Notes: a model not told the origin generated them from the letters alone. Counted from the first letter of the stretch, positions 3,661 to 62,598 are shown. The stretch: 64,000 nucleotides of DNA from a virus (IMGVR_UViG_3300027749_000051:32001-96000), one strand, 5' to 3'. A program made the numbers and translations.

Positions 3661-4551
3661 ATGATTAAAACACCTATAAGGTATGCGGGAGGAAAAAGCA
3701 AGGCGATTAAGATAATAACGCCATTTGTTGAGGGTATTGATAAAATAGTTTCACCATTTATTGGTGGGGGATCTTTGGAGGTTCATTGGGCATCAATGGG
3801 AAAACAAGTTATTGGATATGATTTATTTGATGTTCTTGTTAATTTTTGGAATGTTCTATTGAATAATAAGGGAGAATTGGTTGAGAAGTTAAGACAAATT
3901 AATCCAACATCTGGTGAATATACCCGAATCAAAGAGATATTGATGAAATGGGATAATACACAGGATATGTTGAAAGATTGGAAGACGGGATATTATAAAA
4001 GAGATGATGTAATTTCTTTGGATAGTATAACCGCGGCAGCTTATTATTATTTTAATCACAACACATCTTATGGTCCTGGTTATTTGGGTTGGGGATCATC
4101 TGTTTATTTACAACCTAAGAAATGGGATGATATGATTAGTAAGATATCCAAATTTGAATTACCTACTCTATCAGTGAATCAAGGAAGTTTTGAATCTATA
4201 TTACCGAACCATACTAACGATTTCTTATATTTGGATCCTCCATATTTCTTAGAGAAGGATGCTGACAATAAAATGTTCACAGGGATTTATCCGATGAGAA
4301 ATATACCAGTCCATCACAATGGATTTAATCACGAATTATTGAGAAATATGTTAAAGGATCACAAGGGCGGATTTGTCTTGTCTTATAATAATTGTGAAAC
4401 GATTAGAGATTATTATAGTGAGTTTGAGTTCCATTATCCAACATGGAATTACTCTATGGGTAACGGAGAAAAACGAATAGGTAAGAACAGAATAGAGGCG
4501 GGAATTACAAATACTAAAGACTCACATGAAATTTTAATCGTAAAACGATAA
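3661..4551 (+). CDS. Dam-like (D12 class) DNA adenine methyltransferase
   Basis: RYAGGKS, PFIGGGS, YLDPPY. Confidence 0.9.
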   Translation: MIKTPIRYAGGKSKAIKIITPFVEGIDKIVSPFIGGGSLEVHWASMGKQVIGYDLFDVLVNFWNVLLNNKGELVEKLRQINPTSGEYTRIKEILMKWDNTQDMLKDWKTGYYKRDDVISLDSITAAAYYYFNHNTSYGPGYLGWGSSVYLQPKKWDDMISKISKFELPTLSVNQGSFESILPNHTNDFLYLDPPYFLEKDADNKMFTGIYPMRNIPVHHNGFNHELLRNMLKDHKGGFVLSYNNCETIRDYYSEFEFHYPTWNYSMGNGEKRIGKNRIEAGITNTKDSHEILIVKR

Positions 4552-43029: not shown

Positions 43030-44280
43030 TTGATGAAGACTAAAAAACCAAGTGCTATCGTTTACGGATGGGATAGAGAAGGTGAAGAGATTTTAGTGTC
43101 TGATGTTTATTTTGAAGAGTCATTATTTGATGATGTTATTGTTTATTCTTTACCATACCGAGATACGGTTGTTGAGGATTATTCTAAGTATCAACCAGAT
43201 TTGATAATTTCAATAAACAAAGATATTAATATTCCTCACTACCAACTTGGGAGATTACATATTCATCTTGATAACCTTGATGGTGATAATGTCTTGGCGA
43301 ATATTATTGTTTGTCAATCTGTCTTTAGAAATTGTGAAGTAATTAGGTCCAGGTTCTCTATTTTCACTCCAGTTTATAAAACAGGTGAACGTATTCGCCG
43401 AACTTATGATGGTCTTAAAAATCAGATATGGACCAACTGGGAGTGGGTTATTGTTGATGATTCTCCTGATGAAGAAACTTGGGAAATCTTAAAAGAAATC
43501 TCAGATAAAGATTATCGGGTTAAATTAAATCGAGTCTATCCATTAACGGGCGGCAATGTTGGATTAGCGAAACATAGGGCGGCAATGTTATGTGATGGTG
43601 ATTGGTTAGTGGAATTGGATCATGATGATTATCTAACTTCTGAATGTCTTTCAACATGTAATGATGCGATTGAGAAGTTTCCTGATGGGAAGTTCTTATA
43701 TACAAATTGTTCAGAAATATATGATGATGGGGAACCAAAATATTATGACCATGACTGGTCTGGTAATTGGTATGGTAGACATGATAACTATTTTGATTTT
43801 GGTTATGCCGGACATGAGTGGGTTAATGTTGATGGGGAAAATATATTGGGACATTTTTATCCTGATGTTAACCCATTAACAATCCGATTTAATATCAGTA
43901 TGCCTAATCATGCTAGAATGTGGGAAAGGAATTTCTACCATGAAATTGGTGGACATAACAAAAAAACTCCTGTTGCTGATGATCTGGAAATTATTGTTCG
44001 AAGTTTTTTAAAAACACGGATGATTCATGTGAAAAAAGTGTTATATTTTCAATATAACAATAGGAATAGTACTGTTGATAATAACGCGAATGATATAAAC
44101 CGAAGAGCCAGATTAATTAGGGATTATTATGATGTCGCAATTCACAATCGAATTACTGAACTTGGATTTCATGACTGGAATTGGATTGAAGAAGAAGGAC
44201 ATTCACAAAAGTTTCAAAACAAAGCTCCCATCAGAAAGTATTTTGATGAAGAAGAAGTAATGAATTACATTTATGAGTAA
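43030..44280 (+). CDS. glycosyltransferase family 2
   Basis: FSIFTPVY, WVIVDDS, ELDHDD. Confidence 0.88.
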   Translation: MMKTKKPSAIVYGWDREGEEILVSDVYFEESLFDDVIVYSLPYRDTVVEDYSKYQPDLIISINKDINIPHYQLGRLHIHLDNLDGDNVLANIIVCQSVFRNCEVIRSRFSIFTPVYKTGERIRRTYDGLKNQIWTNWEWVIVDDSPDEETWEILKEISDKDYRVKLNRVYPLTGGNVGLAKHRAAMLCDGDWLVELDHDDYLTSECLSTCNDAIEKFPDGKFLYTNCSEIYDDGEPKYYDHDWSGNWYGRHDNYFDFGYAGHEWVNVDGENILGHFYPDVNPLTIRFNISMPNHARMWERNFYHEIGGHNKKTPVADDLEIIVRSFLKTRMIHVKKVLYFQYNNRNSTVDNNANDINRRARLIRDYYDVAIHNRITELGFHDWNWIEEEGHSQKFQNKAPIRKYFDEEEVMNYIYE

Positions 44281-45448
44281 AAAAACAAAAATTTGTTTGA
44301 ATGCGATGGTTGGTAATGAAGCGCCGACCATCATGAGAATGCTGGAGTCTGTGGCTTCATATATTGACTATTGGGTGATCCAATGTAATGGTAAGGAAGA
44401 CAATACCAAAGAAATAATTGAGAACTTTTTCCAAGAAAAAGGAATTCCTGGTTTTACATATGTAATTGATTGGAATTTTCCAGGTTGGAATAGAGATCAT
44501 ACATTACAAACTTGTTTGAGTGCAGATCATGGATGTGATTGGATATTGAGAATGGATGCCGATGAAACTTTGGCAGTTGATAATGATTTTGATTGGAGTA
44601 TCTTGGATGATATTTCAGTTGACAGTTATAATATCACCGCTCAGGCTGGTCAAACTAAATATTTTAGAACATGGTTTTGGAATGCAAAAAGACCGTGGTT
44701 CTTTCAACACGATAAACGACATGAAACAATTCATTTACCAGAAATTGGTGAGGATTTCCAAAGATTCGACATGCCATACGGGTTTAGACATATGGTCTCA
44801 CAGGATGGTCAGACATGGTATGTTCCAAGAAAATTCTTGAGAGATGCATTAGAGTTGGAGATTGATAAAGTTGTTGGAAATAAAGTGTTAGAGGATCATT
44901 ATCATCTTTGGTATTTGGCGAAAAGTTATTCTGATTCATATGGTAATCCTGATGAGTTACCATTTGGTAAAGATCATTCTGACGAATATGCAAGAAGATC
45001 TATTTGGTATTATGAGATGTTTCTAAAGAAATCTCATAAGTGGGATGGTAGTGGTGTTCCAGAACGACAAGATGAAATGGCATACTATGCTTTGATTATG
45101 ATGGGTATTGCTCATGGATTTATAGGTAATTTAGATAAGTCTTATAAATGTTTCAGAGACGCCGAGTTATTCTGTTCAGGACGAAACGAACATTTACTTT
45201 ATCTTGCTTTGGAATTAGAAAAACAAAAAAAATATATTGATATTCTTCCAATTATTGAGGAGATGTGTAATCCTGAAAAAGTTAATCCATTTCCAAATAG
45301 AACATTCTTAATCGAAGATAGAGCTTATATGAATACAAGTAATTTCTTGAATGAATATAAAGAAAAAATTGAAAATGGGTGTAAAGAAAAAACTGAGATA
45401 ACATCAAAACCATTTATTTTTAAGAGCGTTAAGTTTGACTTTAAATGA
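44273..45448 (+). CDS. GT2-like glycosyltransferase with helical/TPR-like C-terminus
   Basis: ICLNAMVGNEA, WILRMDADE, HE motif. Confidence 0.8.
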   Translation: MSKKTKICLNAMVGNEAPTIMRMLESVASYIDYWVIQCNGKEDNTKEIIENFFQEKGIPGFTYVIDWNFPGWNRDHTLQTCLSADHGCDWILRMDADETLAVDNDFDWSILDDISVDSYNITAQAGQTKYFRTWFWNAKRPWFFQHDKRHETIHLPEIGEDFQRFDMPYGFRHMVSQDGQTWYVPRKFLRDALELEIDKVVGNKVLEDHYHLWYLAKSYSDSYGNPDELPFGKDHSDEYARRSIWYYEMFLKKSHKWDGSGVPERQDEMAYYALIMMGIAHGFIGNLDKSYKCFRDAELFCSGRNEHLLYLALELEKQKKYIDILPIIEEMCNPEKVNPFPNRTFLIEDRAYMNTSNFLNEYKEKIENGCKEKTEITSKPFIFKSVKFDFK

Positions 45449-46551
45449 TTTTAATGAATAAAAATATATATGATTATCTTATCGTTGGCGCTGGAGTTTT
45501 TGGTTCGGTTTGTGCCTATGAACTTACCAAAAAAGGGAAAAAATGTTTAGTAATTGATAAACGAAAAGTTATAGGGGGAAATTGTTATACTGAAAATATA
45601 AATGGTATTCATGTTCACAAATATGGTGCACATATATTTCATACAAACGATAAACATTTATGGGATTATGTTAATCAATTTGCAACATTTAAACCTTTTA
45701 TTAATAGTCCGATTGCGAACTACAAGGGAGAGATTTATGCTCTCCCTTTTAATATGTGGACATTTAATAAATTATGGGGTGTTACTACACCTGAGGACGC
45801 AAAACAAAAAATAGATAGTCAAAAATACAATGGAGAGGTGACTAATCTTGAAGAGCAAGCCTTATCAATGGTTGGAAAAGATGTGTATGAGAAACTAATC
45901 AAAGGGTATACTGAAAAACAATGGAATAAATCTGCAACAGAACTCCCGCCATCTATTATTAAAAGATTGCCAGTTCGATTCACTTGGGACAATAATTATT
46001 TCAATGACAAGTATCAGGGAATACCTATTGACGGATATACACAGATATTTGAAAAGATGCTTGAGAATGTTGATGTAACACTTGGTATTGATTATTTTGA
46101 GGATAAAGAATATTTGGATTCTCTTGCTGATAAAGTAATCTATACTGGACCAATAGATAAGTTTTTTGATTATAAGTTTGGAAGACTTGAATATAAAAGT
46201 TTAAGATGGGAAACACAAGTTTTAGAAACAGATAATTTCCAAGGTAATCCTGTTGTTAATTATACTGATTCTGAAGTACCATATACCCGAATATTAGAAC
46301 ATAAATGGTTTGACCATCAGAACCAAAAGGGAACTGTTATTAGTTATGAATACCCAATGGAATATACTAAAGAAACTGAACCGTATTATCCTATAAGGGA
46401 TGAAAATAATATTGAAATATATGAAAAATATTATTCAGAGGCAAAGAATCTTGATAAGTATATTTTTGGAGGAAGATTAGGAACTTATGTTTATTACGAT
46501 ATGCATCAAGTTATTGATCAAGCACTCAATACGATAAAAGATATTAATTGA
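45445..46551 (+). CDS. glf: UDP-galactopyranose mutase
   Basis: GAGVFG, GGNCY, HKYGAHIFHT, YQGIP, GRLGTYVYYDMH. Confidence 0.95.
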   Translation: MILMNKNIYDYLIVGAGVFGSVCAYELTKKGKKCLVIDKRKVIGGNCYTENINGIHVHKYGAHIFHTNDKHLWDYVNQFATFKPFINSPIANYKGEIYALPFNMWTFNKLWGVTTPEDAKQKIDSQKYNGEVTNLEEQALSMVGKDVYEKLIKGYTEKQWNKSATELPPSIIKRLPVRFTWDNNYFNDKYQGIPIDGYTQIFEKMLENVDVTLGIDYFEDKEYLDSLADKVIYTGPIDKFFDYKFGRLEYKSLRWETQVLETDNFQGNPVVNYTDSEVPYTRILEHKWFDHQNQKGTVISYEYPMEYTKETEPYYPIRDENNIEIYEKYYSEAKNLDKYIFGGRLGTYVYYDMHQVIDQALNTIKDIN

Positions 46552-50132: not shown

Positions 50133-51116
50133 CTACTTCCAGTTAAAATTGTTTCCCATATGTCCCCACATTGCAGTTTCAGAGTATATTGGGTTTTTTA
50201 GGTCCAAATGTTTGATGATACCCTGTGGTGATAAATCGTATTTGTTTAATCCTAGTGGTAGTGTTGCGATGTTAAACTCAATACCATCAATTATTGATGT
50301 GGATTGTAAAGGTTGGTCATATCCGATTGCGTATGATAATTGGACAAATACTTCTTTTGCTGATGGATATGCTTTTAATAGATCTACAGCTACTTTACGA
50401 GCCATATATGCTGCACTTCTATCTACTTTTGTTGCGTCCTTACCACTAAATGCTCCTCCGCCAATCGGGATCCTTGGTCCATAGTTATCCACGGCAAGTT
50501 TTCTACCAGTAACACCAGCATCGGCGTCAAATCCGCCCATATTCCAATCACCAGCAGGATTACAATGTAGTGCCTCGATTCTATAACCTTCAGTTGAACA
50601 GAAATCTTTACATAAAGTTTCTAATTCTTCTTTTGGTGCGTTTTGGAAAGAACACACTACTCTAACACTACGATTTTCTTGGTCTAATGTGATTTGTGTT
50701 TTACCATCGTAAGGGTATTGTTCGTATACCACTTTATTCAACTTTCTTGCCAGATAATATTCTTGTGGTACTAACTCTTCATTCTCATTACATGCATAAC
50801 CAATCATAATTCCTTGGTCACCAGCACCACCAACATCAACACCTTGAGCGATCTCAGGTGATTGTTTTACTAAGTTAATGATAACATCATCAACATTGGC
50901 GATTTCTTTAACGATCTCTCTAATTTTTTCATCTGAAATTTTGTATTCAGATGTTACTTCACCTGTGATGAATACTTTGGAGTGACCTCCACAGGTTTCA
51001 ACGGCACATCTTGATTGTGGGTCGTTTTTTAAATGGTCATCCAAGATTGCGTCTGAGATTCTATCACAAAGCTTATCAGGATGTTTCGGGGATACAAATT
51101 CTGCTGTTCTAATCAT
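50133..51116 (-). CDS. metK: S-adenosylmethionine synthetase (compact form)
   Basis: HPDKLCDRISD, GAGDQG, DAGVTGRK, GGGAFSGKDATKVDRSAAY. Confidence 0.95.
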   Translation of the reverse strand: MIRTAEFVSPKHPDKLCDRISDAILDDHLKNDPQSRCAVETCGGHSKVFITGEVTSEYKISDEKIREIVKEIANVDDVIINLVKQSPEIAQGVDVGGAGDQGIMIGYACNENEELVPQEYYLARKLNKVVYEQYPYDGKTQITLDQENRSVRVVCSFQNAPKEELETLCKDFCSTEGYRIEALHCNPAGDWNMGGFDADAGVTGRKLAVDNYGPRIPIGGGAFSGKDATKVDRSAAYMARKVAVDLLKAYPSAKEVFVQLSYAIGYDQPLQSTSIIDGIEFNIATLPLGLNKYDLSPQGIIKHLDLKNPIYSETAMWGHMGNNFNWK

Positions 51117-51159
51117 ATCAATTTTATTTTATTTTATGTTCTATTTTTAAGTATAATAA

Positions 51160-51189
51160 AAAAGGATGTCAAACTCAAGTTGACATCCT
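51160..51189 (-). terminator. intrinsic terminator between ahcY and metK
   Basis: AGGATGTCAA-7 nt-TTGACATCCT followed by T-run on minus strand. Confidence 0.65.
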
Positions 51190-51212
51190 CTTAATATTTG
51201 TGTTAATTGTTA

Positions 51213-52622
51213 TTAATATCGATATTCGTCTTTTTTGTAAGGACCATTAACATCGACTCCAAGATATTCTGACTGATCTGGTGTTAAGGTTGTTAACTTG
51301 ATTCCTAATTGACCAATATGTAATCTTGCCACTTCTTCATCCAAATGTTTTGGTAATGTGTGAACACCTACAGGGTAATCATTTGTCGCCAATTCAATTT
51401 GAGCTAAGACTTGGTTGGTGAATGAGGTACTCATTACAAAAGATGGGTGACCTGTTGCACACCCTAAGTTAACTAATCTACCTTCAGCCAATAGATAGAT
51501 TGAGTGTCCATCTTCGAAAGTATATTTATCAACCTGTGGTTTGATATTTGTTCTGATAACAGTTTTATCAGAATGTAATTTTTCTACTTGGATCTCATTA
51601 TCGAAATGTCCGATATTACAAACAATTGCCTCATCCTTCATTTGTGACATGTGTTCCAATGTAATAACATCTTTATTACCTGTTGTGGTTACATAGATAT
51701 TACCAACAGATAATGAATCTTCAATTGTCTGTACTTGGAACCCTTCCATTGATGCTTGTAATGCGCAGATGGGGTCAATCTCAGTTATGATAACTCGTGC
51801 TCCATAACTCTTCATAGACTTCGCACATCCTTTGCCAACATCACCATATCCTGCAATTACAACAACTTTACCAGCGATCATAACATCTGTTGCTCGTTTG
51901 ATTCCATCAGCAAGTGATTCACGACAACCATATAAGTTATCGAATTTGGATTTGGTTACAGAGTCATTAACATTAAATGCTGGGAACAATAGTTTATCGT
52001 TTTCATACATTTGATATAATCTATGTACACCTGTTGTTGTTTCTTCAGATACTCCAATAATTCCTTCAACCGCATTTTCCCATCGTTCATTGTTAGATGA
52101 TAGAATTTCTTTTAGAATATGGTTAAACTCATATTCGTCTTCACCATTGGTTGGAAGATCTAAGATGTTTGGATCTTTTTCAGCATCATACCCACGATGG
52201 ATCATTAATGTTGCGTCGCCACCATCATCAACAATTAAGTTTGGCCCTTCACCATTAGGAAATTCCAATGCTTTAGCGGTACACCACCAATATTCTTCTA
52301 ATGTTTCACCTTTCCATGCAAAAACAGGAATACCTGCTTCAGCAATGGCTGCGGCAGCATGATCTTGTGTTGAGAAAATATTACAACTACACCATCTAAC
52401 ATCTGCTCCAAGTTCTTTTAATGTTTCAATTAACACTGCAGTTTGGATTGTCATATGTAATGACCCAGTAATTTTGTGTCCTGATAAAGGTTTAGTTTTA
52501 CCATATTTCTCACGAAGAGACATAAGTCCTGGCATTTCTTTTTCTGCAATCTTAATTTCTTTTCTTCCGTATTCTGCAAGATTAATATCTGCTACGGCAT
52601 AGTCTGTAAATTCCATATTCAT
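51213..52622 (-). CDS. ahcY: S-adenosylhomocysteine hydrolase
   Basis: [50 protein letters not shown]. Confidence 0.97.
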
Positions 52623-53326: not shown

Positions 53327-53857
53327 CTATGTTTTAGATTTATGATTTAATATTTCTTCAACCTTATAATCTTCCCAACTGCCAGCATCTATAGTTTTTT
53401 CTACCTTATGATTAAGGACATCTTCTATATCAGTTTCAGGAAAATTAAATACAACCACAGGTTTTTCTATTTTATAATCGAGGACATTATCTATGTTACG
53501 GTTATCTCTGCCTTGGAAAGATAAAGTTTTTTCTACCTTATGATTGAGGACATCTTCTACTTCCGATTCATCTATAATATTTCTATGTCGAGGTGTATCT
53601 ACTTTATAATTAAGGATATCTTCTACAAAAGAGGATAGGATAGGTTCAAACTCATTTCGTTCCATTGAAAATATGGTAAAAAAATCAGAGAAAAACCACC
53701 ATCTCCAATACAAGATTCCTCGTTTTTTATATTCTAAATACCAATACTTATTTTCTCTGTCAATAATCCATATGGAGTCTTCATATGGAATTATCTCAGT
53801 ATGTTTCAGATCATTATATAGTTTATCAAATATTATTTTCTTTAATCTGGGGTTCAT
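53327..53857 (-). CDS. array-gene paralog 1 (WWRW domain plus five degenerate 22-aa units)
   Basis: Shared ~75-aa N-domain; VEDILNxKV units at 66-nt period. Confidence 0.85.
   Translation of the reverse strand: MNPRLKKIIFDKLYNDLKHTEIIPYEDSIWIIDRENKYWYLEYKKRGILYWRWWFFSDFFTIFSMERNEFEPILSSFVEDILNYKVDTPRHRNIIDESEVEDVLNHKVEKTLSFQGRDNRNIDNVLDYKIEKPVVVFNFPETDIEDVLNHKVEKTIDAGSWEDYKVEEILNHKSKT
53328..53627 (-). repeat. in-frame 36+30 nt repeat-spacer array, 5 degenerate repeats, 4 spacers
   Basis: Repeats at 53592, 53526, 53460, 53394, 53328 (plus-strand starts). Confidence 0.75.
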
Positions 53858-53858
53858 T

Positions 53859-54408
53859 TTAATTAAGTATATTATCTACTTTAACAGGCCATGGGCAATA
53901 ATCTGCTTTTGCTGTATTTACCTTATGATTCAGTACATCGTCCAATATTTTGTAGTTCTCAACCAATGATTTCATAGATGTTTCTCCATTATGGTTAAGT
54001 ACATCTGCCGTCGGGTTTACGAATCCGCAATAACCGATCTTAGTTGCATCTACCTTATGATTAAGGATGTCTTCCTCTTTAGTGTAACCTGTTGTGTTTC
54101 GCCAAGTAGATATTGTTACTTTAGGGTTAAGGATGTCTTTCACCACTGGTGTTTGCGAATCGTTTGTAAAAAAGGATTTACTTACCTTATGATTAAGGAT
54201 GTTTTCCACCTTAAGATGAGTAAGAAAATCTATACCATTAGATGTACTTACCTTATGATTAAGGATGACTTCCACCGATGCGATGGCTGGACCAACACCA
54301 GTATCGGATGTGTTTACCTTATAATTAAGGATGTCTTCCACCAATGCAGAGAAAGCATTTGAAAGAAGAACAGATGTGCCTACCTTATGATTAAGGATGT
54401 CTTCCACC
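53859..54408 (-). CRISPR. CRISPR-like in-frame array: 8 full repeats plus a truncated one, 8 unique 30-nt spacers
   Basis: First repeat GGTGGAAGACATCCTTAATCATAAGGTAGGCACATC (54373-54408); strict 66-nt period; degenerates distally; no cas gene in window. Confidence 0.55.
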
Positions 54409-54638
54409 ATAGAAGTTAGAAATGGTTTATACTCATTTTGTTCCAATGAGAATAGTTGGAAAAAATTATTGAAAAACTCCCATCTCCACCATAATGTTCC
54501 TGATTTTTCAAATTCAAAATACCAGTACTTTTCTTTTCTATCAATAAACCATATCGCATTATTATATGGGATTATCTCCACATGTTTCAGATCGTTATAT
54601 AGTTTATCTAATATAATTTTTTTTAATCTCTCGTTCAT
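53859..54638 (-). CDS. array-gene paralog 2 (WWRW domain plus nine 22-aa units)
   Basis: Same N-domain; longest array. Confidence 0.88.
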   Translation of the reverse strand: MNERLKKIILDKLYNDLKHVEIIPYNNAIWFIDRKEKYWYFEFEKSGTLWWRWEFFNNFFQLFSLEQNEYKPFLTSMVEDILNHKVGTSVLLSNAFSALVEDILNYKVNTSDTGVGPAIASVEVILNHKVSTSNGIDFLTHLKVENILNHKVSKSFFTNDSQTPVVKDILNPKVTISTWRNTTGYTKEEDILNHKVDATKIGYCGFVNPTADVLNHNGETSMKSLVENYKILDDVLNHKVNTAKADYCPWPVKVDNILN

Positions 54639-54641
54639 AGT

Positions 54642-55109
54642 TTATATTTTATTTACCTTACGATTTAAGATTCTTTCTACCAATCCTTCAGGTGGAACTT
54701 CATCAAAGAATGTTGTTTTTACCTTACGATTTAAGATGTCTTCCACCCAGCCTTTGGCTTTACCTATGAAATTATTTGATGTATCTACCTTACGATTTAA
54801 GATGTCTTCCACCGGGTCGATCGATTGATATTCCCCATTGAAAGATGTATCTACCTTACGATTTAAGATGTCTTCCACCATATCTCGTATAAGTGGCTCA
54901 TACTCATCTCGTTCCAATGAAAACAGGTAGAAAAAATTATTGAAAAACTCCCATCTCCACCACAGAGTTCCATTTTTATTCAATTTAAAGTACCAGTATT
55001 TTTCATTTGGATCTATTGCCCATATATTGCCATCATCGACAATAATTTCGGAGCCCTTCATATCGTTCAAAAGTTTATCAAATATTATTTTCTTTATCCT
55101 GTCGTTCAT
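54642..55109 (-). CDS. array-gene paralog 3 (WWRW domain plus four 22-aa units)
   Basis: Same N-domain. Confidence 0.88.
   Translation of the reverse strand: MNDRIKKIIFDKLLNDMKGSEIIVDDGNIWAIDPNEKYWYFKLNKNGTLWWRWEFFNNFFYLFSLERDEYEPLIRDMVEDILNRKVDTSFNGEYQSIDPVEDILNRKVDTSNNFIGKAKGWVEDILNRKVKTTFFDEVPPEGLVERILNRKVNKI
54646..54879 (-). CRISPR. CRISPR-like in-frame array: 4 repeats, 3 spacers
   Basis: Two identical GGTGGAAGACATCTTAAATCGTAAGGTAGATACATC (54844, 54778), third ends AAAACAAC, fourth degenerate. Confidence 0.6.
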
Positions 55110-55128
55110 ATCATCTAAATTATCTTGG

Positions 55129-55159
55129 CAAAGATATTAAAAAAGATTAATACAACAAA
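55129..55159 (-). promoter_or_regulatory. Bacteroidota-type promoter driving the array-gene cluster
   Basis: Minus strand TTTG (55156-55159), 19 nt, TATCTTTG (55129-55136). Confidence 0.75.
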
Positions 55160-55173
55160 ATATTTTCAAGGAT

Positions 55174-55205
55174 ATTGTGTGATTGAATTAATTTTATTAT
55201 CTTTG
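55174..55205 (+). promoter_or_regulatory. divergent Bacteroidota-type promoter
   Basis: ATTG, 20 nt, TATCTTTG. Confidence 0.65.
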
Positions 55206-55245
55206 TGGAATAGAAAGTAAGTTATTAAATTAAAAGTTAAATAAT

Positions 55246-55407
55246 ATGTGGGTTAAGAAGAAGATTTTGGATCATTGGACTTATATTGAAAGAAAGACCA
55301 AAGTATTTGTTAGACGGGATTATCGTAATAACACCGTTGTGATTAATTTTATGGAAGGTGGTCCTTGTACTTTATATACTTATAAAGGTGAATGGATTGC
55401 GGGTTAA
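55246..55407 (+). CDS. 53-aa protein (not in ORF track)
   Basis: MWVKKKILDHWTYIERK...; first ORF after promoter. Confidence 0.55.
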   Translation: MWVKKKILDHWTYIERKTKVFVRRDYRNNTVVINFMEGGPCTLYTYKGEWIAG

Positions 55408-55428
55408 AAAAGAATTGGAGGAAAAGAA

Positions 55429-55980
55429 ATGAGCGGAGGACACTTTGATTACAAACAAAACGAAATCGGTTATATTGCCGATGAGATAGAAAGCACCATT
55501 GAAAGAAATGGTAAGGAAAAGACCCAAGAGGAATTAAGAGATGAAGGATGGTGTAATTCTGAATTTCATAATCAATATCCTGAAGATAAATTTCACTATA
55601 AATATCCGGATGATGTTATTGAGAAATTTAAAGAGGCTGTTAATTTATTAAGAAAAGCACAAATCTATGCTCACAGAATTGATAGGTTATTATCAGGAGA
55701 TGATGGAGAAGAATCATTTATTAAACGATTAAATGATGAATTGGATAAAATTGAGATTCCACTACCAAATGACGCGTTAATAGAGGCGGCACAACGATAT
55801 AAGGAAAATGTTAGTGCAGGAGCGCTTACATCATCTAGTAATGGTTTAACATTGTCACCATCAACTATTAGTGGAATATGGAGTAGTAGCACTACTACTT
55901 GGAAAGGTGGTTATGTCACAAATAACTTTGAATCTTATTATATGGGTGAGAATGGTAATAAACATATAAATAATAAATGA
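55429..55980 (+). CDS. hypothetical phage protein
   Basis: MSGGHFDY..DWLLSGDDGE-like motif (DRLLSGDDGEESF). Confidence 0.65.
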   Translation: MSGGHFDYKQNEIGYIADEIESTIERNGKEKTQEELRDEGWCNSEFHNQYPEDKFHYKYPDDVIEKFKEAVNLLRKAQIYAHRIDRLLSGDDGEESFIKRLNDELDKIEIPLPNDALIEAAQRYKENVSAGALTSSSNGLTLSPSTISGIWSSSTTTWKGGYVTNNFESYYMGENGNKHINNK

Positions 55981-56435
55981 AAACTCAGAAAGAATATCCT
56001 GAGACACACTTCAGGAGCAGTGAGGCGGAAAGAATTCACAATGAGGGTTATGAACTGATGCTCATTAATAATACTTTACCTTTTAACAACAGACCAGTTC
56101 TCGGAGATGCAAAACACGGATTTGTTAGTATGAGTTGGGATGCTTGGCATAAGAATAGGGATAGTATGAGACTTAAACGACTTACCAATCCTCAACTCCT
56201 CAACGGAGAAATTAAGAATGATAGAATCGTTTCATTATATAAAGGATGTAAGGTTCATCTAATGAATAAGGGTGGGACATACATTGTTAAATCATATGAT
56301 AATGAGGTGGCTGTGATCACTTGTCAGAGATGGGTTAACCAGAAAGAATGGGGACAAAGATACAGAGATACCTTAACAGTTCCAAGAAGTGAAATAAAAT
56401 GTCATTATGGGGGAACAAAATACGGCAAGTTGTAA
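55977..56435 (+). CDS. hypothetical protein
   Basis: Coupled ORF. Confidence 0.6.
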   Translation: MKTQKEYPETHFRSSEAERIHNEGYELMLINNTLPFNNRPVLGDAKHGFVSMSWDAWHKNRDSMRLKRLTNPQLLNGEIKNDRIVSLYKGCKVHLMNKGGTYIVKSYDNEVAVITCQRWVNQKEWGQRYRDTLTVPRSEIKCHYGGTKYGKL

Positions 56436-56479
56436 TATTTTTATTATATTTGTATAATTAATCATTAAATCTTTTAGAT

Positions 56480-56731
56480 ATGACCGAATCGGACAGTGCT
56501 ATTTTAGAAACACTTATTACAAAGTTATTAGAAGGAGTTGAATTAGAATCAAAAACAGAAACCGCGATTGGATATCACGGAAGTTCACAGGGAGAAGAGA
56601 TTACTTATACGATACATTATAATCCGTATCGTAGGACTTGGGAACCAAAAGAGTTTGCCTTAATGGGGCATGTGTTCTCAAAAATTAAACCAATAATCTT
56701 AAAAATTATAAATAAAGATGGGAATGTTTGA
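56480..56731 (+). CDS. hypothetical protein
   Basis: Follows TATATTTG at 56445-56452. Confidence 0.55.
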   Translation: MTESDSAILETLITKLLEGVELESKTETAIGYHGSSQGEEITYTIHYNPYRRTWEPKEFALMGHVFSKIKPIILKIINKDGNV

Positions 56732-57101
56732 TACACTTTACATCAATATAGACAAATTGCCTATATCTGATAAGGAAAAAGAAACTATCGGCAATGATAC
56801 CGAATGGCAGACCAAATCTTTTGATTGCGTCTTAACGGAGATATACATAACCGATCAGAACGAATTAAAGATCAATCGATGGAATTATGAGGATGTTCCA
56901 TTGGAAGACAGACCAAATCCACTTAAAGAAGGAATACTTGGATTTATGGGAAGCCTGAGAAGAGCCAATGAGAGATTGGAAATAATGTCTTATAATGGAT
57001 ATGTTAACTTTTATGGTAAAGGAGGAGATGATTGGTATGAGTTTAATGCCAAGTTTATTGATGGACTACTTCAAGGGATTGAGGGTGGAAAAATAGTTTA
57101 A
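56718..57101 (+). CDS. hypothetical phage protein
   Basis: MGMFD..WQTKSFDC..W.EF.A.F..G pattern. Confidence 0.65.
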   Translation: MGMFDTLYINIDKLPISDKEKETIGNDTEWQTKSFDCVLTEIYITDQNELKINRWNYEDVPLEDRPNPLKEGILGFMGSLRRANERLEIMSYNGYVNFYGKGGDDWYEFNAKFIDGLLQGIEGGKIV

Positions 57102-57106
57102 GGTTG

Positions 57107-57268
57107 ATGAAGCATAGTTTTTGGAGGATATGGGCAAAATCATTAGGGGAGAAAACAGGAGAGACCGATGAGGAAGCAGATAGAGTTGCGATGGTTAGAA
57201 CAATAATCTTAATGGTATACATTATAACCAATTTAGTTATAATCGCAGGAATAATTAGACACTGGTAA
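57107..57268 (+). CDS. 53-aa conserved small phage membrane protein (not in ORF track)
   Basis: WRIWAKSLGEK..ADRVA..RT..ITN...AGIIRHW. Confidence 0.7.
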   Translation: MKHSFWRIWAKSLGEKTGETDEEADRVAMVRTIILMVYIITNLVIIAGIIRHW

Positions 57269-57300
57269 TTAACCCTCACCCAAAAGGTGGGGGTTAATTA
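57268..57300. terminator. bidirectional terminator of CCTCACC/GGTGGGG family
   Basis: AACCCTCACC-caaaa-GGTGGGGGTT between convergent genes. Confidence 0.75.
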
Positions 57301-57561
57301 TGAGATAACTTTAACTGGCAACTTATATCCTTTTTTGAACCAAGCGGATATAACAATAAGGATTACATTATCAATGTAACCTTTTCCAAACTTCTTATTC
57401 AACTCGGACCTAACTATATCACTACAATACATTGTTGAGGTCTTAATATCAAATAAGAAATACTCGTTATGCCAGGTCTGCTCAACCTTATCATAGTAAA
57501 GGTATGGGAACCCAAATTTATCATCTATGAATTTAACTATGTGTTTTTCTATTGTTGTCAT
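57298..57561 (-). CDS. hypothetical protein
   Basis: 87-aa ORF. Confidence 0.55.
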   Translation of the reverse strand: MTTIEKHIVKFIDDKFGFPYLYYDKVEQTWHNEYFLFDIKTSTMYCSDIVRSELNKKFGKGYIDNVILIVISAWFKKGYKLPVKVIS

Positions 57562-57588
57562 ATATACAAATATAATATATTTATTAAT

Positions 57589-58110
57589 ATGAACTTACAA
57601 GAAAACATACACAGGATTAAGGAAATGATGGGGATTAATGAAAAGCATGATCTCCTGAATAAACCTATCAAAGATATTATAGACCAAGTGGGAGGATATG
57701 GAACAGGATTCAACACCGATGAAGACGCCATAGAAGAAATAGAATATGTGGTATCAAGTGATTTTCCTGAAGGTCTGAATAACATTCCAACTAAAGTAAT
57801 CTTATATAGAGTTATATTATTGGAAGATGGTAAATCCATTAACGAGGATCAGGTTGGGGAACATTTCATTTCGGATACAAGACATATAGATAGATCGTTC
57901 TTGGAAAAGATAGATATATGGGACAATTGGGATGCGGACAATTCCAAGTTATGGTTACTACAATGTGAAACGGATGGGGATAATATAGATATAGAAAGAA
58001 CATTAGGTAATAGAGTTCAATATCCTCGTGAGAATGAATTCACCCTGAAGAACGATAAAAAGATTAGGTTGATAAAGAAAAAGATACTTAATAAAGAACA
58101 GCTTAGATGA
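57589..58110 (+). CDS. MNLQENI-leader protein, ADP-ribosyltransferase-like fold
   Basis: Start 57589 after TATTTAT; LYR, HFIS, ENE pattern. Confidence 0.5.
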   Translation: MNLQENIHRIKEMMGINEKHDLLNKPIKDIIDQVGGYGTGFNTDEDAIEEIEYVVSSDFPEGLNNIPTKVILYRVILLEDGKSINEDQVGEHFISDTRHIDRSFLEKIDIWDNWDADNSKLWLLQCETDGDNIDIERTLGNRVQYPRENEFTLKNDKKIRLIKKKILNKEQLR

Positions 58111-58637
58111 AATACATAATTACTGAGAGACAATATAGAGTGATATCCGAAGAAGTTAATCCTCGCATCAAAGAAATTATCTTCAATAAGTTATTGAATG
58201 ATATGAAGGGTGTTGAGATTATTGAAGATAATGGTAGCATATGGGCAATAGATCCTGATGAGAAATACTGGTACTTTGAGTTGCAAGAAAACGGAACTTT
58301 ATGGTGGAGATGGGGATTTTTCAATAATTTTTTCAAGTTATTTTCAATAGAAAGAAATGAGTTTGAACCACTTATGCGTGAACTGGTGGAAGACATCTTG
58401 AATCGCAAGGTAGTCACATCACTTCTAGTGCAATTCCTTGGTGACCTAATGGTGGAAGACATCTTGAATCGCAAGGTAGTCACATCCCACAGCGGACAGA
58501 TTCACGTCCAAAGCCAGGTGGAAGACATCTTGAATCGCAAGGTAGTCACATCTAGTGGGCATGACCAAAGATTAACAATGTCAATAAAAGACATATTAAA
58601 TCGTAGGAATAAGATAACCAAAGATGAGAACTTTTAA
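58107..58637 (+). CDS. array-gene paralog 4 with added MKYIITE leader
   Basis: Same WWRW N-domain; near-identical segments to paralog 3. Confidence 0.88.
   Translation: MKYIITERQYRVISEEVNPRIKEIIFNKLLNDMKGVEIIEDNGSIWAIDPDEKYWYFELQENGTLWWRWGFFNNFFKLFSIERNEFEPLMRELVEDILNRKVVTSLLVQFLGDLMVEDILNRKVVTSHSGQIHVQSQVEDILNRKVVTSSGHDQRLTMSIKDILNRRNKITKDENF
58385..58618 (+). CRISPR. CRISPR-like in-frame array: three identical 36-nt repeats plus degenerate fourth, three 30-nt spacers
   Basis: GGTGGAAGACATCTTGAATCGCAAGGTAGTCACATC at 58385, 58451, 58517. Confidence 0.65.
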
Positions 58638-58640
58638 GAT

Positions 58641-58958
58641 ATGAAACTACAAGAGAACATAGACAGAATTAAACAAGTGATGGGAGTTATCAATGAAGAT
58701 AAACCATCAATCCATATTTTACGGAGATTACCTCAAATAGAGAGGGCATTAAATCAGACATTATATTATTTATCTCCTTGTGAATATGATGATGTGGAAT
58801 ATTATACTGAACATGTATTACACCAACTTAGGGAATATTTTGAAGATTATGAAGAAGAAGAAGAGGTTGAACCTTTTGCGGCAACAAATTATGTTGCAGA
58901 ATATTTATCATCTGAAATAGAAGAATATTACGATGACCGTAAAACAGAATGTGAATAA
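58641..58958 (+). CDS. MKLQENI-leader acidic protein
   Basis: Shared leader. Confidence 0.65.
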   Translation: MKLQENIDRIKQVMGVINEDKPSIHILRRLPQIERALNQTLYYLSPCEYDDVEYYTEHVLHQLREYFEDYEEEEEVEPFAATNYVAEYLSSEIEEYYDDRKTECE

Positions 58959-59022
58959 TAAAGAATATTCACTTAGACATAAACTATACAATATCAAATA
59001 AATCTATACAATATTTTTTATA

Positions 59023-59712
59023 ATGAAACTACAAGAGAATATAGATAGGATAAAACAAGTGATGGGGATTATTACAGAATCACGACCAGGATTTTGTTTA
59101 CCGAAAGATTATACTCCAGGAACAAAATATGGAAGGGATGAGTTAGCTAAGATGTTTGTATGTTTTACAAAAGATCCGAAGAAGTTTCCATTATTGGCGG
59201 TTAAGGAATGGTTATTTCCACAATTACCTGGTGGAGGATTTACGCCCCAAGATCCAATGAGTATGAGTTATGGTCAACCATATACTTTTACTATGGAAAG
59301 AATGGCAAAAGTAGAAGATAAAAATACAAGAAATATCACAGTCGGAATAAAAACCATTGACCCAACTCAATTACCTGATGAAACAAAAAGATGGTTTAGT
59401 ATAAAACAAAAATCTCCAGGATTTCAAGATAGATTTGACTATCAGATAAATAAGATAAGGGAGAATGACTATGATACTACAGTTATAACACCTCAAGATG
59501 AGCCTATGGTTTTTGAGGTTATAAATAGAAAGTTATATATTCAAGAAGGGTGGCATAGGTTAATGGCGATCTTAATGTTATTGGAGAAGGGGGAAATAAT
59601 TCCTGATCAGGCTAAAGTATATGCTGTAACTGTATTTAGATCTCCCGATTTTAAGTTAAAAATAGTGGATAAACCAGAAGGCCTTTTTGAAAACATAAGA
59701 AATTACCAATAA
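59023..59712 (+). CDS. MKLQENI-leader protein with ParB/Srx-like motif
   Basis: LYIQEGWHRLMA resembles IxDGxHR. Confidence 0.55.
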   Translation: MKLQENIDRIKQVMGIITESRPGFCLPKDYTPGTKYGRDELAKMFVCFTKDPKKFPLLAVKEWLFPQLPGGGFTPQDPMSMSYGQPYTFTMERMAKVEDKNTRNITVGIKTIDPTQLPDETKRWFSIKQKSPGFQDRFDYQINKIRENDYDTTVITPQDEPMVFEVINRKLYIQEGWHRLMAILMLLEKGEIIPDQAKVYAVTVFRSPDFKLKIVDKPEGLFENIRNYQ

Positions 59713-59734
59713 TAACCAAGATAGATTTATAACA

Positions 59735-60214
59735 ATGAAACTACAAGAGAATATAGATAGGATAAAACAAGTGATGGGGATTAATGAAACCTTTGACGCA
59801 GGGGTGGAACCAACTCTTAGAGACACCTATAACGAAGATGGGGCAAAAGTATATTCATACATCCTTCCGTCAAAGAAAGATGAAAAAGATTACATCATCA
59901 ACTTAAAGTTCTATAAGGAGTTTAAGGACCCGAAAATCAAAGATACATATAAAGATGTTATGGTAATAGATTTTAATCTTGGGGCAGGGACTTATTACAA
60001 TACCAACCTTAATGAAGTATTTTATATCTTTGCTTCAATCAATAAACTTATAGAGAAGTATAAGAAGAAGTTCCAATATCTTATGGGTTATTCAAACAAA
60101 GATAGATTGTCCTTATATAAGAAAGCATTGTCAAGAGCAAATTATTTGGAACTGGTAGATGAGGGATCACATCATATCATATATAAGAACAAAGATTATT
60201 CACGATGGTTCTAA
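59735..60214 (+). CDS. MKLQENI-leader hypothetical protein
   Basis: First 49 nt identical to 59023 gene. Confidence 0.65.
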   Translation: MKLQENIDRIKQVMGINETFDAGVEPTLRDTYNEDGAKVYSYILPSKKDEKDYIINLKFYKEFKDPKIKDTYKDVMVIDFNLGAGTYYNTNLNEVFYIFASINKLIEKYKKKFQYLMGYSNKDRLSLYKKALSRANYLELVDEGSHHIIYKNKDYSRWF

Positions 60215-60830: not shown

Positions 60831-61781
60831 ATGAAAGATTTAATTTTTATCAGTGCTTATTGTCCAACCGAGGAACAAGAAAGGGCTCTTGAAAGGTGTG
60901 TTAATCATGTATTAGAATGTGGGAAACACATTGTCTTAGTTTCTCACACACATGTGCCAATCCATATTCAAAAAAAATGCCAATACTACGTTTATGATTA
61001 TAACAATGAAATTTCAGACGATTATAATTTGTTAGGACATCATCATTTTAAGTTTGGAAATAACAGAATACAATCAAGATTCTTCAACAAATATTTTTAT
61101 GGTTTCGCCATATATAGAATGTTCGCAATAGCATGTCAAATTGCGATAAATTTTGGATATCAAAATATTCATCACATTGAATATGATGGTCAGTTGTTAG
61201 ATAAAAATTTAATTGATGAAAATAGTAAACACCTTGAAGAATATGATTCTGTAATATACACAGATAACGGTAAAGAAGATGGGTTTCTTTTTGGTTCTTT
61301 CAAATCTTTGAAAGTAAGTTCATTACCTGAGAATTTGAAAAACTATAACAAAGAGTTTATTGATACTGAAATGAGAATAATTGAGCCAAAACAATTAGAG
61401 GTTTTTACAAAAAATCTATTCCTAAATTCAGGAAAAGTATTGTTTAAGAATGAACTAACGGATGATAGATTTAAAAGGGGAGATAGAGTTTTTCATCGGA
61501 ACTTACACTTTACTCTGTATTACAATGCATCAGATAGAACCTTAAACATTTTTTATAACTCTGTTAAAGACTCATCGGAAAAAATTATTGTTATAGTCAA
61601 TAAAACAACAATGGTTAATATACAAACCAAACCTTATCATTGGCATACAAAACCGTTGGGTATTTTTGACGAGATTAATCATGTAAGAGTGGACAATTCA
61701 GAAAAAATTATTTATGATAAAACCTTTGATAGCCAATTTAGAGAGGTATTCAAAATAAAGTCATACATCGTTAGTGAATAA
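60831..61781 (+). CDS. hypothetical protein, possibly GT-A-like
   Basis: IFISAYC..IVLVSHT..HHIEYD; coupled to next two genes. Confidence 0.45.
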   Translation: MKDLIFISAYCPTEEQERALERCVNHVLECGKHIVLVSHTHVPIHIQKKCQYYVYDYNNEISDDYNLLGHHHFKFGNNRIQSRFFNKYFYGFAIYRMFAIACQIAINFGYQNIHHIEYDGQLLDKNLIDENSKHLEEYDSVIYTDNGKEDGFLFGSFKSLKVSSLPENLKNYNKEFIDTEMRIIEPKQLEVFTKNLFLNSGKVLFKNELTDDRFKRGDRVFHRNLHFTLYYNASDRTLNIFYNSVKDSSEKIIVIVNKTTMVNIQTKPYHWHTKPLGIFDEINHVRVDNSEKIIYDKTFDSQFREVFKIKSYIVSE

Positions 61782-62598
61782 GATAATCAATTTTACTCCA
61801 ACAGGAACACAAACCACAAGGGACAATTCCTTAGCTCCATTATTACCGAATGAAATAATAGAGGAAGTTCATAGCGCGAATGAGGTGGGGATTTCAATTG
61901 TACATCTACATGCAAGAGATGAAGAGACAAATAACACTTACAAGAAAGAAGTGTATCAAAAGATTATAGAAGGGATAAAAAAACATTGTCCTGACTTGTT
62001 GATTTGTGTTTCATTAACGGGAAGAAACTTCCCTGAGTTAGAGAAAAGAGCCGAGGTATTACAATTAAAACCTGATATGGGCTCGCTAACCATGTCATCA
62101 TTAAACTTTCCATCAGGGGCATCAATTAATCAACCTGAGACCATCTTATCTTTAATAAACGAGATGGACAAATATGGTGTACAACCTGAGATAGAATGTT
62201 TTGACGCAGGAATGTTAAACTATACAAATTACATTATTTCAAAGAACATATTAAAGCCACCATATCACATCAATGTTATATTAGGAAACATATACAATGG
62301 GCAATGTGATTTTGGGACCTTATCATCAATTAAATCTAATCTACCAGCAAATTCATATACTTGTTTGGGTGGTATAGGCTCTCAACAACTAAAGAGTACC
62401 ACATATGGATTATTAGATTTCGATGGTATTAGAATCGGGATAGAGGATAATCTATATTACAAAGATAAGGAAAAAACAACAAACATAGATCTATTAAAAA
62501 GGGCACATAGGATAATGAATGAATTAGATATGACACATTATACATCAAACGAATTGAGACAAAAAGGATATGGAAACAAACTTATTAATATTAGGTAA
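61774..62598 (+). CDS. beta-keto acid cleavage enzyme (BKACE/DUF849, Kce-like)
   Basis: TPTG, IVHLHARD, PDMGSL, EIECFD, RIGIEDN. Confidence 0.9.
   Translation: MNKIINFTPTGTQTTRDNSLAPLLPNEIIEEVHSANEVGISIVHLHARDEETNNTYKKEVYQKIIEGIKKHCPDLLICVSLTGRNFPELEKRAEVLQLKPDMGSLTMSSLNFPSGASINQPETILSLINEMDKYGVQPEIECFDAGMLNYTNYIISKNILKPPYHINVILGNIYNGQCDFGTLSSIKSNLPANSYTCLGGIGSQQLKSTTYGLLDFDGIRIGIEDNLYYKDKEKTTNIDLLKRAHRIMNELDMTHYTSNELRQKGYGNKLINIR

Follow-up and report, generated by a model that had tools for sequence, protein, structure and literature searches.

The window analysed here is a 64,000-nucleotide stretch of an uncultured freshwater giant phage (IMGVR_UViG_3300027749_000051:32001-96000), which is part of a 125-kb record estimated to be 42% complete. 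Within this window lie four paralogous genes (g1 to g4, Table 1), each encoding a conserved N-terminal domain of about 77 residues (KYWY..G.LWWRW.FF) that is followed by units of exactly 22 codons, in which 12 residues are conserved (VEDILNxKVxTS) and 10 are variable. The 4+8+3+3 = 18 variable cassettes are all 30 nt long and all different, and no two of them are alike beyond chance (the best pair has 16 of 30 identical positions, with shuffled sequences reaching 15-17). The genes, the 36+30 nt units and the stop-free inserts held up as set out in the preliminary description, with one refinement and one addition. At the nucleotide level the conserved block is 36 nt but starts one base before the codon-aligned repeat, beginning at the third base of the last cassette codon (G in 88-93% of units) and ending at the second base of the T/S codon. 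In addition, four more paralogs are present in the record outside the window, making eight in total.

Table 1. Positions of the array-bearing genes and of their parts; unprefixed coordinates refer to the window and those with C1 to the whole record.
Feature	Coordinates	Strand	Description
g1 gene	53327-53857	-	
g1 N-domain	53627-53857	-	
g1 array	53327-53626	-	5 repeats (more diverged, partly AT-drifted) and 4 inserts
g2 gene	53859-54638	-	
g2 N-domain	54408-54638	-	
g2 array	53859-54407	-	9 repeats (degenerating toward the 3' end) and 8 inserts
g2 insert 2	54277-54306	-	30 nt, antisense of a bacterial nuoL fragment
g2 insert 3	54210-54239		replaced in close strains
g3 gene	54642-55109	-	
g3 N-domain	54879-55109	-	77 aa
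g3 array	54642-54878	-	4 repeats (the first three nearly identical at nucleotide level, the fourth degenerate) and 3 inserts, ending in the stop codon
g4 gene	58107-58637	+	
g4 N-domain	58107-58385	+	with a 16-residue N-terminal extension (MKYIITERQYRVISEE)
g4 array	58385-58637	+	3 identical repeats plus 1 degenerate terminal repeat, and 3 inserts
Further paralog	C1:105206-106069		
Further paralog	C1: about 101916-102296		
Further paralog	C1:114130-114783		
Further paralog	C1:115753-116142		

Several lines of evidence indicate that the arrays are translated. When the 18 cassettes were taken together with the three of g5, a paralog outside the window, the 21 cassettes contained no stop codon in the frame of the gene against 9 and 29 in the other forward frames and 7-14 in the reverse frames, the chance of finding no stop in 210 codons being about 3e-7. 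Extending the analysis to 372 unique inserts from 117 related arrays again yielded no stop in the gene's frame, against 145 and 261 in the other forward frames and 161-164 in each reverse frame. All unit spacings measured at the DNA level were multiples of three, and both g5 and the related sequence P0025 continue in frame into a conserved domain of about 105 residues. Variants of shared inserts differed at 16, 19 and 44 sites in codon positions 1, 2 and 3, respectively (p = 1e-4), with pN/pS of 0.18, indicating purifying selection at the protein level, whereas pN/pS for the N-domain family was 0.30. The structure predicted with AlphaFold2 for g3 had pLDDT values of 93-96 over residues 1-92, with the first repeat forming part of the predicted N-domain fold. 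Searches against Pfam, PHROGs and NCBIfam gave nothing.

The preliminary description had interpreted the arrays as the product of a spacer-acquisition-like integrase writing 30-bp fragments into a protein-coding gene, and had specified four observations that would speak against this view. We looked for each of them and none was found, so that the interpretation is supported, although the integrase itself has not been shown. Firstly, with regard to variation in insert length, 495 of the spacings in the 117 arrays were exactly 22 codons, and a DNA scan blind to the reading frame gave 66 nt in 334 cases, the rest being 63, 72, 75, 132 or 138 nt and never 65 or 67. Secondly, the repeats were not conserved merely as protein, as the information profile showed a sharp 36-nt block in 408 units and in 23 independent lineages, with four-fold degenerate sites being 78-100% fixed across the 23 lineages while the four-fold site just past the end of the repeat was random. 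Thirdly, the inserts were not diverged duplicates of each other, since pairwise identity was strictly bimodal, at most 20/30 or at least 25/30, apart from one pair at 23/30. Finally, a match outside the arrays does exist, as insert 2 of g2 corresponds to the antisense strand of a bacterial nuoL gene. It matches positions G468:C8:102326-102354 of a Bacteroidia genome at 27/29 and the same gene in at least five more Bacteroidia genomes, the homology stops at the spacer borders, the gene was identified as NuoL (TIGR01974, E = 8e-232), and the composition-aware chance expectation of such a match is about 1e-5. This is the only one of the 18 window inserts for which a source was found, and none was found for the inserts of g4, g5 or three other loci in the genomes sampled.

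We next compared the repeat with those of type VI-B (Cas13b) CRISPR arrays, which have repeats of 36 nt with complementary ends GUUG...CAAC, spacers of 30 nt and a crRNA of 66 nt (Smargon et al., bioRxiv 10.1101/092577). A Bacteroidia genome (G152) carries cas13b (NF038190, E = 1.7e-246) directly followed by an array, the repeat of which equals the phage repeats at a mean of 21.3 and a maximum of 28 of 36 positions, in register and in mRNA sense, while shuffled controls gave 10.2±1.9 with a maximum of 16.5. G152 has not been shown to be the host of the phage. The family consensus is GGUG...ACAAC, and GGUG...ACAUC in this window, so that the 3' end fits whereas the 5' end departs from GUUG, position 2 being a G forced by the Val codon; this mixed outcome does not settle whether the complementary ends are retained. 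Likewise, the base pairs of the bacterial repeat were kept in 65% of cells, against 36-54% for slid controls (81% in the internal helix and 55% in the terminal helix), but without covariation above shuffles, which leaves conservation of the RNA fold undecided and Cas13b binding uncertain.

The turnover of the inserts resembles that of spacers. Shared inserts were colinear in 105 of 107 array pairs, unshared inserts numbered 1228 on the 5' side, 263 internally and 745 on the 3' side, and repeat identity to the first repeat fell from 0.91 to 0.64 toward the 3' end. In other lake metagenomes, contigs about 98-99% identical in the flanks keep inserts 4-8 of g2 but carry a wholly different insert 3. 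The metagenome locus L011 shares only the last two inserts of g2 but all four of g1, in the array of which only four single-base differences are listed in contigs of metagenome runs X4 and X10. The last insert and terminal repeat of g4 are shared with the related sequences P0004, P0008 and L008, whereas the 5' inserts differ. The GC content of the inserts was 41-43%, against 29% in the N-domain and 32.6% in the phage, their codon-position composition was flat and their dinucleotide signature was natural rather than random. The polarity is however weaker than in classical arrays. Many differences lie on the 3' side and some are internal, so that recombination alone could produce much of the pattern. 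An ordinary, fast-evolving tandem-repeat protein that arose once, perhaps from a captured CRISPR array or by chance likeness, and that changes only by unequal recombination and cassette exchange between paralogs and phages without any integrase, would agree with the two violations of order, with the internal and the many 3'-side differences, with the movement of cassettes together with their flanking repeat variants, with the presence of eight paralogs that could exchange units and with the absence of an identified integrase in the records and loci searched. Nevertheless, recombination cannot create new cassettes, and yet there are 372 unique, mutually unrelated inserts with no intermediates, whereas units of such a protein would be homologous over their whole length and diverge gradually. 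The GC content at third codon positions is 43% in the inserts against 28% in the N-domain, so that they are not at the mutational equilibrium of the phage, and the borders, sharp to the nucleotide and out of codon register, the fixed synonymous sites and the nuoL insert also speak against this alternative, which we consider unlikely.

The search for the genes of a writing machinery, which the preliminary description had also called for, gave negative results. No cas1, cas13b or reverse transcriptase (RVT_1) was found in the incomplete 125-kb record, no cas1 in a related 163-kb record, no close Cas13b relative in viral contigs, and no conserved enzyme gene next to the arrays in 84 loci. The lack of a reverse transcriptase in this incomplete record, together with the absence of a second copy of any insert in the record or the loci, gives no support to a diversity-generating retroelement with its template and variable repeat pair. 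We also considered a multi-core precursor of ribosomally made, processed peptides, with the N-domain as leader, the constant 12 residues as recognition sites and the variable 10 residues as cores, as in cyanobactin precursors with hypervariable cassettes. The architecture, the nucleotide-identical flanks around hypervariable cores and the selection on the peptides would be compatible with this, but no protease, cyclase or other maturation enzyme recurs next to the genes in the 84 loci, an observation that does not decide the matter because many neighbours are of unknown function. As this possibility explains neither the Cas13b-like repeat, the out-of-register borders nor the nuoL insert, we regard it as very improbable.

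Taking all the results together, the explanation we favour, with moderate confidence, is that these are CRISPR-type repeat-spacer arrays that double as coding sequence. In this view, the last 36 nt of a small folded phage domain is a translatable derivative of a Bacteroidia type VI-B direct repeat, encoding a helix plus a strand, and a CRISPR integrase would insert 30-bp fragments of DNA present in the infected cell, including host chromosome, at the domain-proximal repeat while duplicating that repeat. The likeliest enzyme would be the type II-C Cas1-Cas2 of the host acting in trans, as it does on Cas1-less VI-B arrays, a process established in Flavobacterium columnare (PMC8092290). Because 36+30 = 66 nt = 22 codons, every event would keep the frame, inserts with a stop codon or an off-length would be purged, and the product would be the N-domain with a growing tail of constant short helices separated by variable 10-residue loops, in which persisting cassettes are kept by purifying selection as peptides. 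Older units would sit at the 3' end, where the repeats decay, and units would also be lost or exchanged by recombination between repeats. Our analyses show the translation of the arrays, their nucleotide-defined geometry, the likeness to a Cas13b repeat, the spacer-like turnover, one insert of bacterial origin and selection on the peptides, whereas the integrase, ongoing acquisition and any function are inferred. Our best guess for the function, which is unknown, is a heritable, expandable peptide display used in host take-over or counter-defence, and the transcript may also offer Cas13b-type repeat units as guides or decoys.

Alternatively, the real product could be the RNA, the arrays being Cas-less phage CRISPR arrays whose crRNA-like transcripts act on the Cas13b of the host, either as decoys that soak up the enzyme or as guides against host transcripts such as nuoL mRNA, with translation being secondary, for example to protect a long repeat transcript from Rho termination or decay. 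The repeats lie in crRNA sense on the mRNA, the 66-nt unit equals the mature VI-B crRNA, the nuoL insert in this sense would be complementary to nuoL mRNA, huge phages carry compact Cas1-less arrays (PMC7162821) and phage repeat mimics that inhibit Cas proteins are known (PMC10651486). Processing of the transcript into 66-nt crRNAs was not measured here, as no RNA run is listed for this DNA. The protein-level purifying selection on shared inserts, the integration of the first repeat into a confidently predicted fold, the conserved downstream domain of g5 and P0025 and the only partial retention of the base pairs argue against this reading, and an activated Cas13b would also harm a lytic phage, so that we hold it as possible but unlikely.

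CRISPR integration is known only as a way of storing guide-RNA templates, and we found no paper describing arrays of this kind read as protein. Here the same repeat-spacer geometry is kept as an open reading frame in hundreds of phage lineages, with 338 clusters at 50% identity among 1.8 billion representative proteins. In its furthest form, which we judge about as likely as not, giant phages of freshwater Bacteroidia have turned a Cas13b-type array into a writable gene, into which the spacer-acquisition machinery of the host inserts pieces of cellular DNA, giving the phage a heritable, growing library of 10-residue peptides on a scaffold, while the same transcript may supply guide or decoy units for the Cas13b of the host. 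If so, this would be adaptive, Lamarckian-style protein diversification by CRISPR integration, a new route by which foreign DNA is turned directly into peptide cassettes, and a new kind of phage-host interplay around RNA-targeting Cas13b, to which nucleus-forming giant phages are known to be exposed. The finding also shows a blind spot, since searches for viral CRISPR repeats mask ORFs first (PMC10651486) and CRISPR finders tend to discard arrays that lie in genes.

Comparison with known systems places the arrays closest to the type VI-B arrays of Bacteroidota filled in trans by type II-C Cas1-Cas2 (Smargon et al., bioRxiv 10.1101/092577; Hoikkala et al., PMC8092290), with which they share the repeat, spacer and unit lengths, the CAAC 3' end of the family consensus, reading from the leader side, unique spacers, a newer 5' end and decayed terminal repeats. 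They differ in that the array lies inside an ORF, is translated and encodes peptides under selection, in the GGUG 5' end, in the replacement of the stop-creating UUUGA of the host repeat, in the lack of cas13b and cas1 in the record, and in having the coding sequence of a folded domain as 'leader'. The compact Cas1-less arrays of huge phages (Al-Shayeb et al. 2020, PMC7162821) also occur in giant phages, with few repeats per array, no acquisition genes, host-like repeats and some spacers matching host chromosomal genes, but they are described as non-coding guide-RNA loci, whereas the frames described here are kept open through every spacer in up to eight paralogous genes per phage. RNA anti-CRISPRs, or solitary repeat units (Camara-Wilpert et al. 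2023, PMC10651486), are likewise phage-borne mimics of host repeats, but they are solitary, non-coding and near-identical (at least 90%) to host repeats, while we observed translated arrays of 4-9 repeats with spacers whose best identity to a known repeat is 28/36; none was found for type VI, and the ORF masking in that search would have missed the present arrays. Lastly, the hypervariable repeat proteins of the TALE-like and LRR families (Altae-Tran et al. 2020, PMC10392669), a survey in which the present family is not among the five systems listed in the section headings, also combine constant and hypervariable positions in tandem units, but there the variable positions are a few residues that diverge by mutation, whereas here whole 10-residue blocks are unrelated, replaced wholesale, and bounded at nucleotide rather than codon level.

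The window belongs to a linear virus record of 125,154 bp with 32.6% GC, whose completeness was put at 42% by CheckV, so that it represents a fragment of a giant phage. Phage hallmarks are present, including an SbcC-like ATPase and three consecutive collagen-repeat, tail-fibre-like genes, each ending in an endosialidase-chaperone domain (Peptidase_S74) and lying in a stretch of 41-43% GC within a genome of about 31% GC. Freshwater metagenomes of 13 studies hold the stretch or part of it, but no RNA data set is listed for this DNA. Genes g3, g2 and g1 are tightly packed and are followed on the same strand by a DUF6165 gene and then, back to back, by the genes of S-adenosylhomocysteine hydrolase and SAM synthetase (MetK), a methyl-cycle pair in a phage. 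A family-2 glycosyltransferase, a UDP-galactopyranose mutase and a beta-keto acid cleavage enzyme are also encoded by the phage. Four neighbouring genes start with nearly the same 16 residues (MKLQENIDRIKQVMGI or MNLQENIHRIKEMMGI) and then differ completely, and g4-g6 and many neighbours in related loci start with MKYIITE.QY; these look like shared N-terminal tags of unknown meaning.

Positions of the array genes and of the other features examined (window coordinates unless another sequence is named)
Feature	Position	Strand
g3, g2 and g1	55109 down to 53327	-
g4	58107-58637	+
Insert 2 of g2	54277-54306	
Paralog g5	C1:105206-106069	
Domain of g5 downstream of its array	L001 9740-10069 (genome C1:105740-106069)	
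SAM synthetase and S-adenosylhomocysteine hydrolase genes	50133-52622	-
Three collagen-repeat genes	22621-27402	+
Four genes with a shared N-terminal start	57589-60214	+
Glycosyltransferase, UDP-galactopyranose mutase and beta-keto acid cleavage enzyme genes	43030-46551 and 61774-62598	+
Long antisense ORFs across the arrays	53991-54828	+
Long antisense ORFs across the arrays	58103-58483	-
Cas13b array with a variable repeat triplet (Bacteroidia genome G152)	L111 276-707 and L117 about 3830-4120	

The preliminary description of four paralogous genes ending in in-frame arrays of repeats and 30-nt inserts proved to be correct. Each gene encodes a conserved N-domain followed by units of exactly 22 codons, 12 conserved residues and 10 variable ones, with 18 variable cassettes in the window. 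A profile of the N-domain finds eight paralogs in the record, one of which, g5, runs through four repeats into a further basic, Cys-rich domain of about 105 residues in the same frame (GPWVNICRKD..PCGR..YPKCR), which is nearly identical in the homolog P0025, from a 197-kb contig, and gives no match in Pfam. Some homologs among the metagenome proteins (P0002, P0003 and P0012) are single ORFs with two N-domain-array modules in series, so adjacent paralogs can be read through as one protein. Searches of Pfam, PHROGs and NCBIfam gave nothing for g1-g4 or their small neighbours. An exhaustive HMM search of 1.84 billion representative proteins finds 338 clusters at E < 0.001 and 155 at E < 1e-10, among which the 22-residue period dominates, whereas only one hit appears in 185,579 prokaryotic species genomes, on a 2.8-kb contig of a Lake Mendota Bacteroidia bin. 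The family therefore belongs to phages. We retrieved 80 metagenome loci and 3 viral loci, which yielded 117 arrays with DNA.

Analysis of these sequences showed that the arrays are translated. In 372 unique inserts the frame of the gene has no stop, while the other two forward frames have 145 and 261 and each reverse frame has 161-164; the long antisense ORFs of 123-143 aa that run across the arrays arise from the repeats. Inserts of variable length had been named in advance as an observation that would count against spacer-like insertion. A scan for the repeat core without regard to reading frame gave spacings of 66 nt (334 cases), 132 (22), 138 (7), 63 (2), 72, 75 and 24, all of them multiples of three. 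A real type II-C array, by comparison, mixes 65- and 66-nt units. The N-domain evolves at pN/pS 0.30, and copies of the same insert in different phages differ at codon positions 1/2/3 in 16/19/44 independent sites (p = 1e-4), with pN/pS 0.18; for example, five nucleotide versions of KSFGAPKHFQ encode two peptides. The AlphaFold2 model of g3 has pLDDT 93-96 for residues 1-92, and the predicted fold is a helix, four strands and two helices, including the first repeat as part of the last helix and a strand, whereas later repeats are predicted as short helices and the cassettes as disordered. Fold searches with this model found no clear relative (Foldseek E ≥ 0.14; VIA-align Z ≤ 4.2), and the ESM Atlas gave no usable hit.

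The repeat is also a nucleotide-level element, a point on which conservation as protein alone would have told against the proposed mechanism. Per-position information over 408 unique units shows a block of exactly 36 conserved nucleotides that is one base out of register with the codons, beginning at the third base of the last cassette codon, which is G in 88-93% of units although the residue there varies, and ending at the second base of the T/S codon. The next 30 nt carry no information. Taking one unit from each of 23 lineages (under 80% nucleotide identity in the N-domain) gives the same result: the four-fold degenerate sites inside the block are G 91%, A 78% and A 100%, AAG is preferred over AAA in 100% of units despite the AT-rich genome, and the four-fold site just beyond the block is random. 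Protein-level selection cannot produce this pattern. Two other readings, a precursor of RiPP type and a diversity-generating retroelement (DGR), were set aside for lack of enzymes in the incomplete record and next to the genes in 84 loci, where many neighbours are of unknown function, and because they do not explain these nucleotide-level borders.

We next examined the relationship of the repeat to those of Cas13b arrays. Type VI-B repeats have been described by Smargon et al. as 36 nt with 5'-GUUG and CAAC-3' ends, spacers as 30 nt, and the mature crRNA as a 30-nt spacer followed by a 36-nt repeat, and the family consensus here is GGTGGAAGAGGTATTAAATCATAAGGTANNNACAAC. Rfam gave no CRISPR-DR family for the repeats, the only match being a chance one to CRISPR-DR6 inside an N-domain, and exact Cas13b repeat strings were mostly not found in the texts of papers, although one of them (PspCas13b) was verified. 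A pattern search of 401 Bacteroidia genomes found three genomes with 36+30 arrays. Two are type II-C, one array lying next to cas9 and cas1 and the other next to cas1, whereas the third genome (G152) has no cas1 match but has a Cas13b of 1144 residues (NF038190, E 1.7e-246) directly followed by an array. The repeat of this array, GTTGTATATGGTCTTAATTTGAAAGGTAGATACAAC, equals the g3 repeat at 25 of 36 positions, ungapped and in register, and matches 339 distinct phage repeats at a mean of 21.3 and a maximum of 28 positions, while a thousand shuffles give 10.2±1.9 and never exceed 16.5. The likeness is on the mRNA-sense strand, which is the crRNA sense. The repeat of G152 read in the phage frame would contain TGA, and the phage version has ATCGT/ATCAT where the repeat of G152, which is not shown to be the host, has TTTGA. 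Within one genuine Cas13b array of G152 the repeat varies at positions 28-30 (AAA, AGG, TGA, AGA), which is almost the same place where the phage repeats have their variable triplet (positions 29-31). The RNA fold is only partly kept, the internal stem being 81% paired and the terminal stem 55%, with no covariation beyond controls, and we therefore make no claim that Cas13b would bind the transcript. The spacers of the arrays of genomes G152, G183 and G221 do not match these phages.

The inserts behave like spacers. It had been stipulated beforehand that inserts alignable to each other as diverged duplicates would contradict this view, and the pairwise identity of inserts from different arrays is strictly bimodal, at most 20/30 (random level) or at least 25/30 apart from one pair at 23/30, and no two inserts within an array are alike. 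Insert GC is 41-43%, against 29% in the N-domain, and GC3 is 43% against 28%, with base composition nearly flat over the codon positions and amino-acid composition close to that of translated random DNA. The dinucleotide signature, however, is that of natural DNA (TA 0.67, AA 1.18 and CC 1.19, each 7-11 SD from an iid, stop-filtered null). Maps of a group of 41 arrays look like CRISPR spacer maps. Shared inserts are colinear in 105 of 107 array pairs, unshared ones lie 5' (1228), internal (263) or 3' (745), and repeats decay toward the 3' end, from 0.91 to 0.64 identity to the first repeat. In the case of the genes of the window, the metagenome locus L011 shares only the last two inserts of g2 and all four of g1, while the locus L008 and the homologs P0004 and P0008 share only the last insert and the terminal repeat of g4. 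Contigs from two other lakes or years are 98-99% identical across g1 and the distal part of g2 but carry a completely different insert 3; because the Logan contigs break inside the arrays, the 5' ends of variant arrays were not read.

An external match for at least one insert had likewise been set as a condition, and we searched the g1-g3 arrays against 41 relatives of the Bacteroidia bin. One stretch hit at least six genomes at the same gene. Insert 2 of g2 matches the Bacteroidia genome G468 at 27 of 29 positions, on the antisense strand of NADH-quinone oxidoreductase subunit L (NuoL; TIGR01974, E 8e-232), in the region encoding DAMAGPTPVS, and similarity stops at both spacer borders. A composition-aware estimate gives about 1e-5 such matches by chance, compared with 0.1-1 for the AT-rich background hits that reached similar bit scores. 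The exact donor is not among the genomes sampled, including the 66 genomes of the best-matching family. In mRNA sense this insert is complementary to nuoL mRNA, and the phage reads the antisense frame whose third positions coincide with those of the donor. A foreign source was verified for this one insert only: searches of the g4 and g5 arrays and of the arrays of three other loci (L034, L084 and L036) against Bacteroidia genomes found no spacer-bounded match, although few candidates were scored for the long queries. A search of 353 inserts against 567 kb of related phage DNA and the phage's own record returned only partial arrays that had not been masked, and noise, and no insert matches the phage's own record or 440 kb of related phage DNA.

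The presence of cas1 elsewhere in the genome had also been proposed as a test: no cas1, cas13b or reverse transcriptase lies in the record, which is only 42% complete, no cas1 lies in a related record of 163 kb, and no enzyme gene recurs next to the arrays. While the translation of the arrays, their nucleotide-level borders and the bacterial match of one insert are shown by the sequence analysis, the integrase is therefore inferred, and ongoing acquisition is not shown directly. In Flavobacterium columnare, Cas1-less VI-B arrays with 36-bp repeats are filled by the type II-C Cas1-Cas2 in trans and are transcribed from the leader into the array (PMC8092290), which makes the host enzyme the simplest candidate. 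Recombination between repeats, on the other hand, clearly contributes, given the order violations and the internal and 3' differences. Taking these results together, the proposal that an integrase resembling that of spacer acquisition writes 30-bp fragments into a phage coding gene finds support in our analysis, with neither the enzyme nor the function of the product identified.

Huge phages carry compact Cas1-less arrays, some with host-like repeats and some with spacers against host genes (PMC7162821). Phages also carry solitary repeat mimics that inhibit Cas complexes, none of which was found for type VI, in a search that masks ORFs first (PMC10651486). Neither those papers nor full-text searches for translated or protein-coding CRISPR arrays describe arrays kept as reading frames, and we consider the finding to lie outside the known kinds of system.
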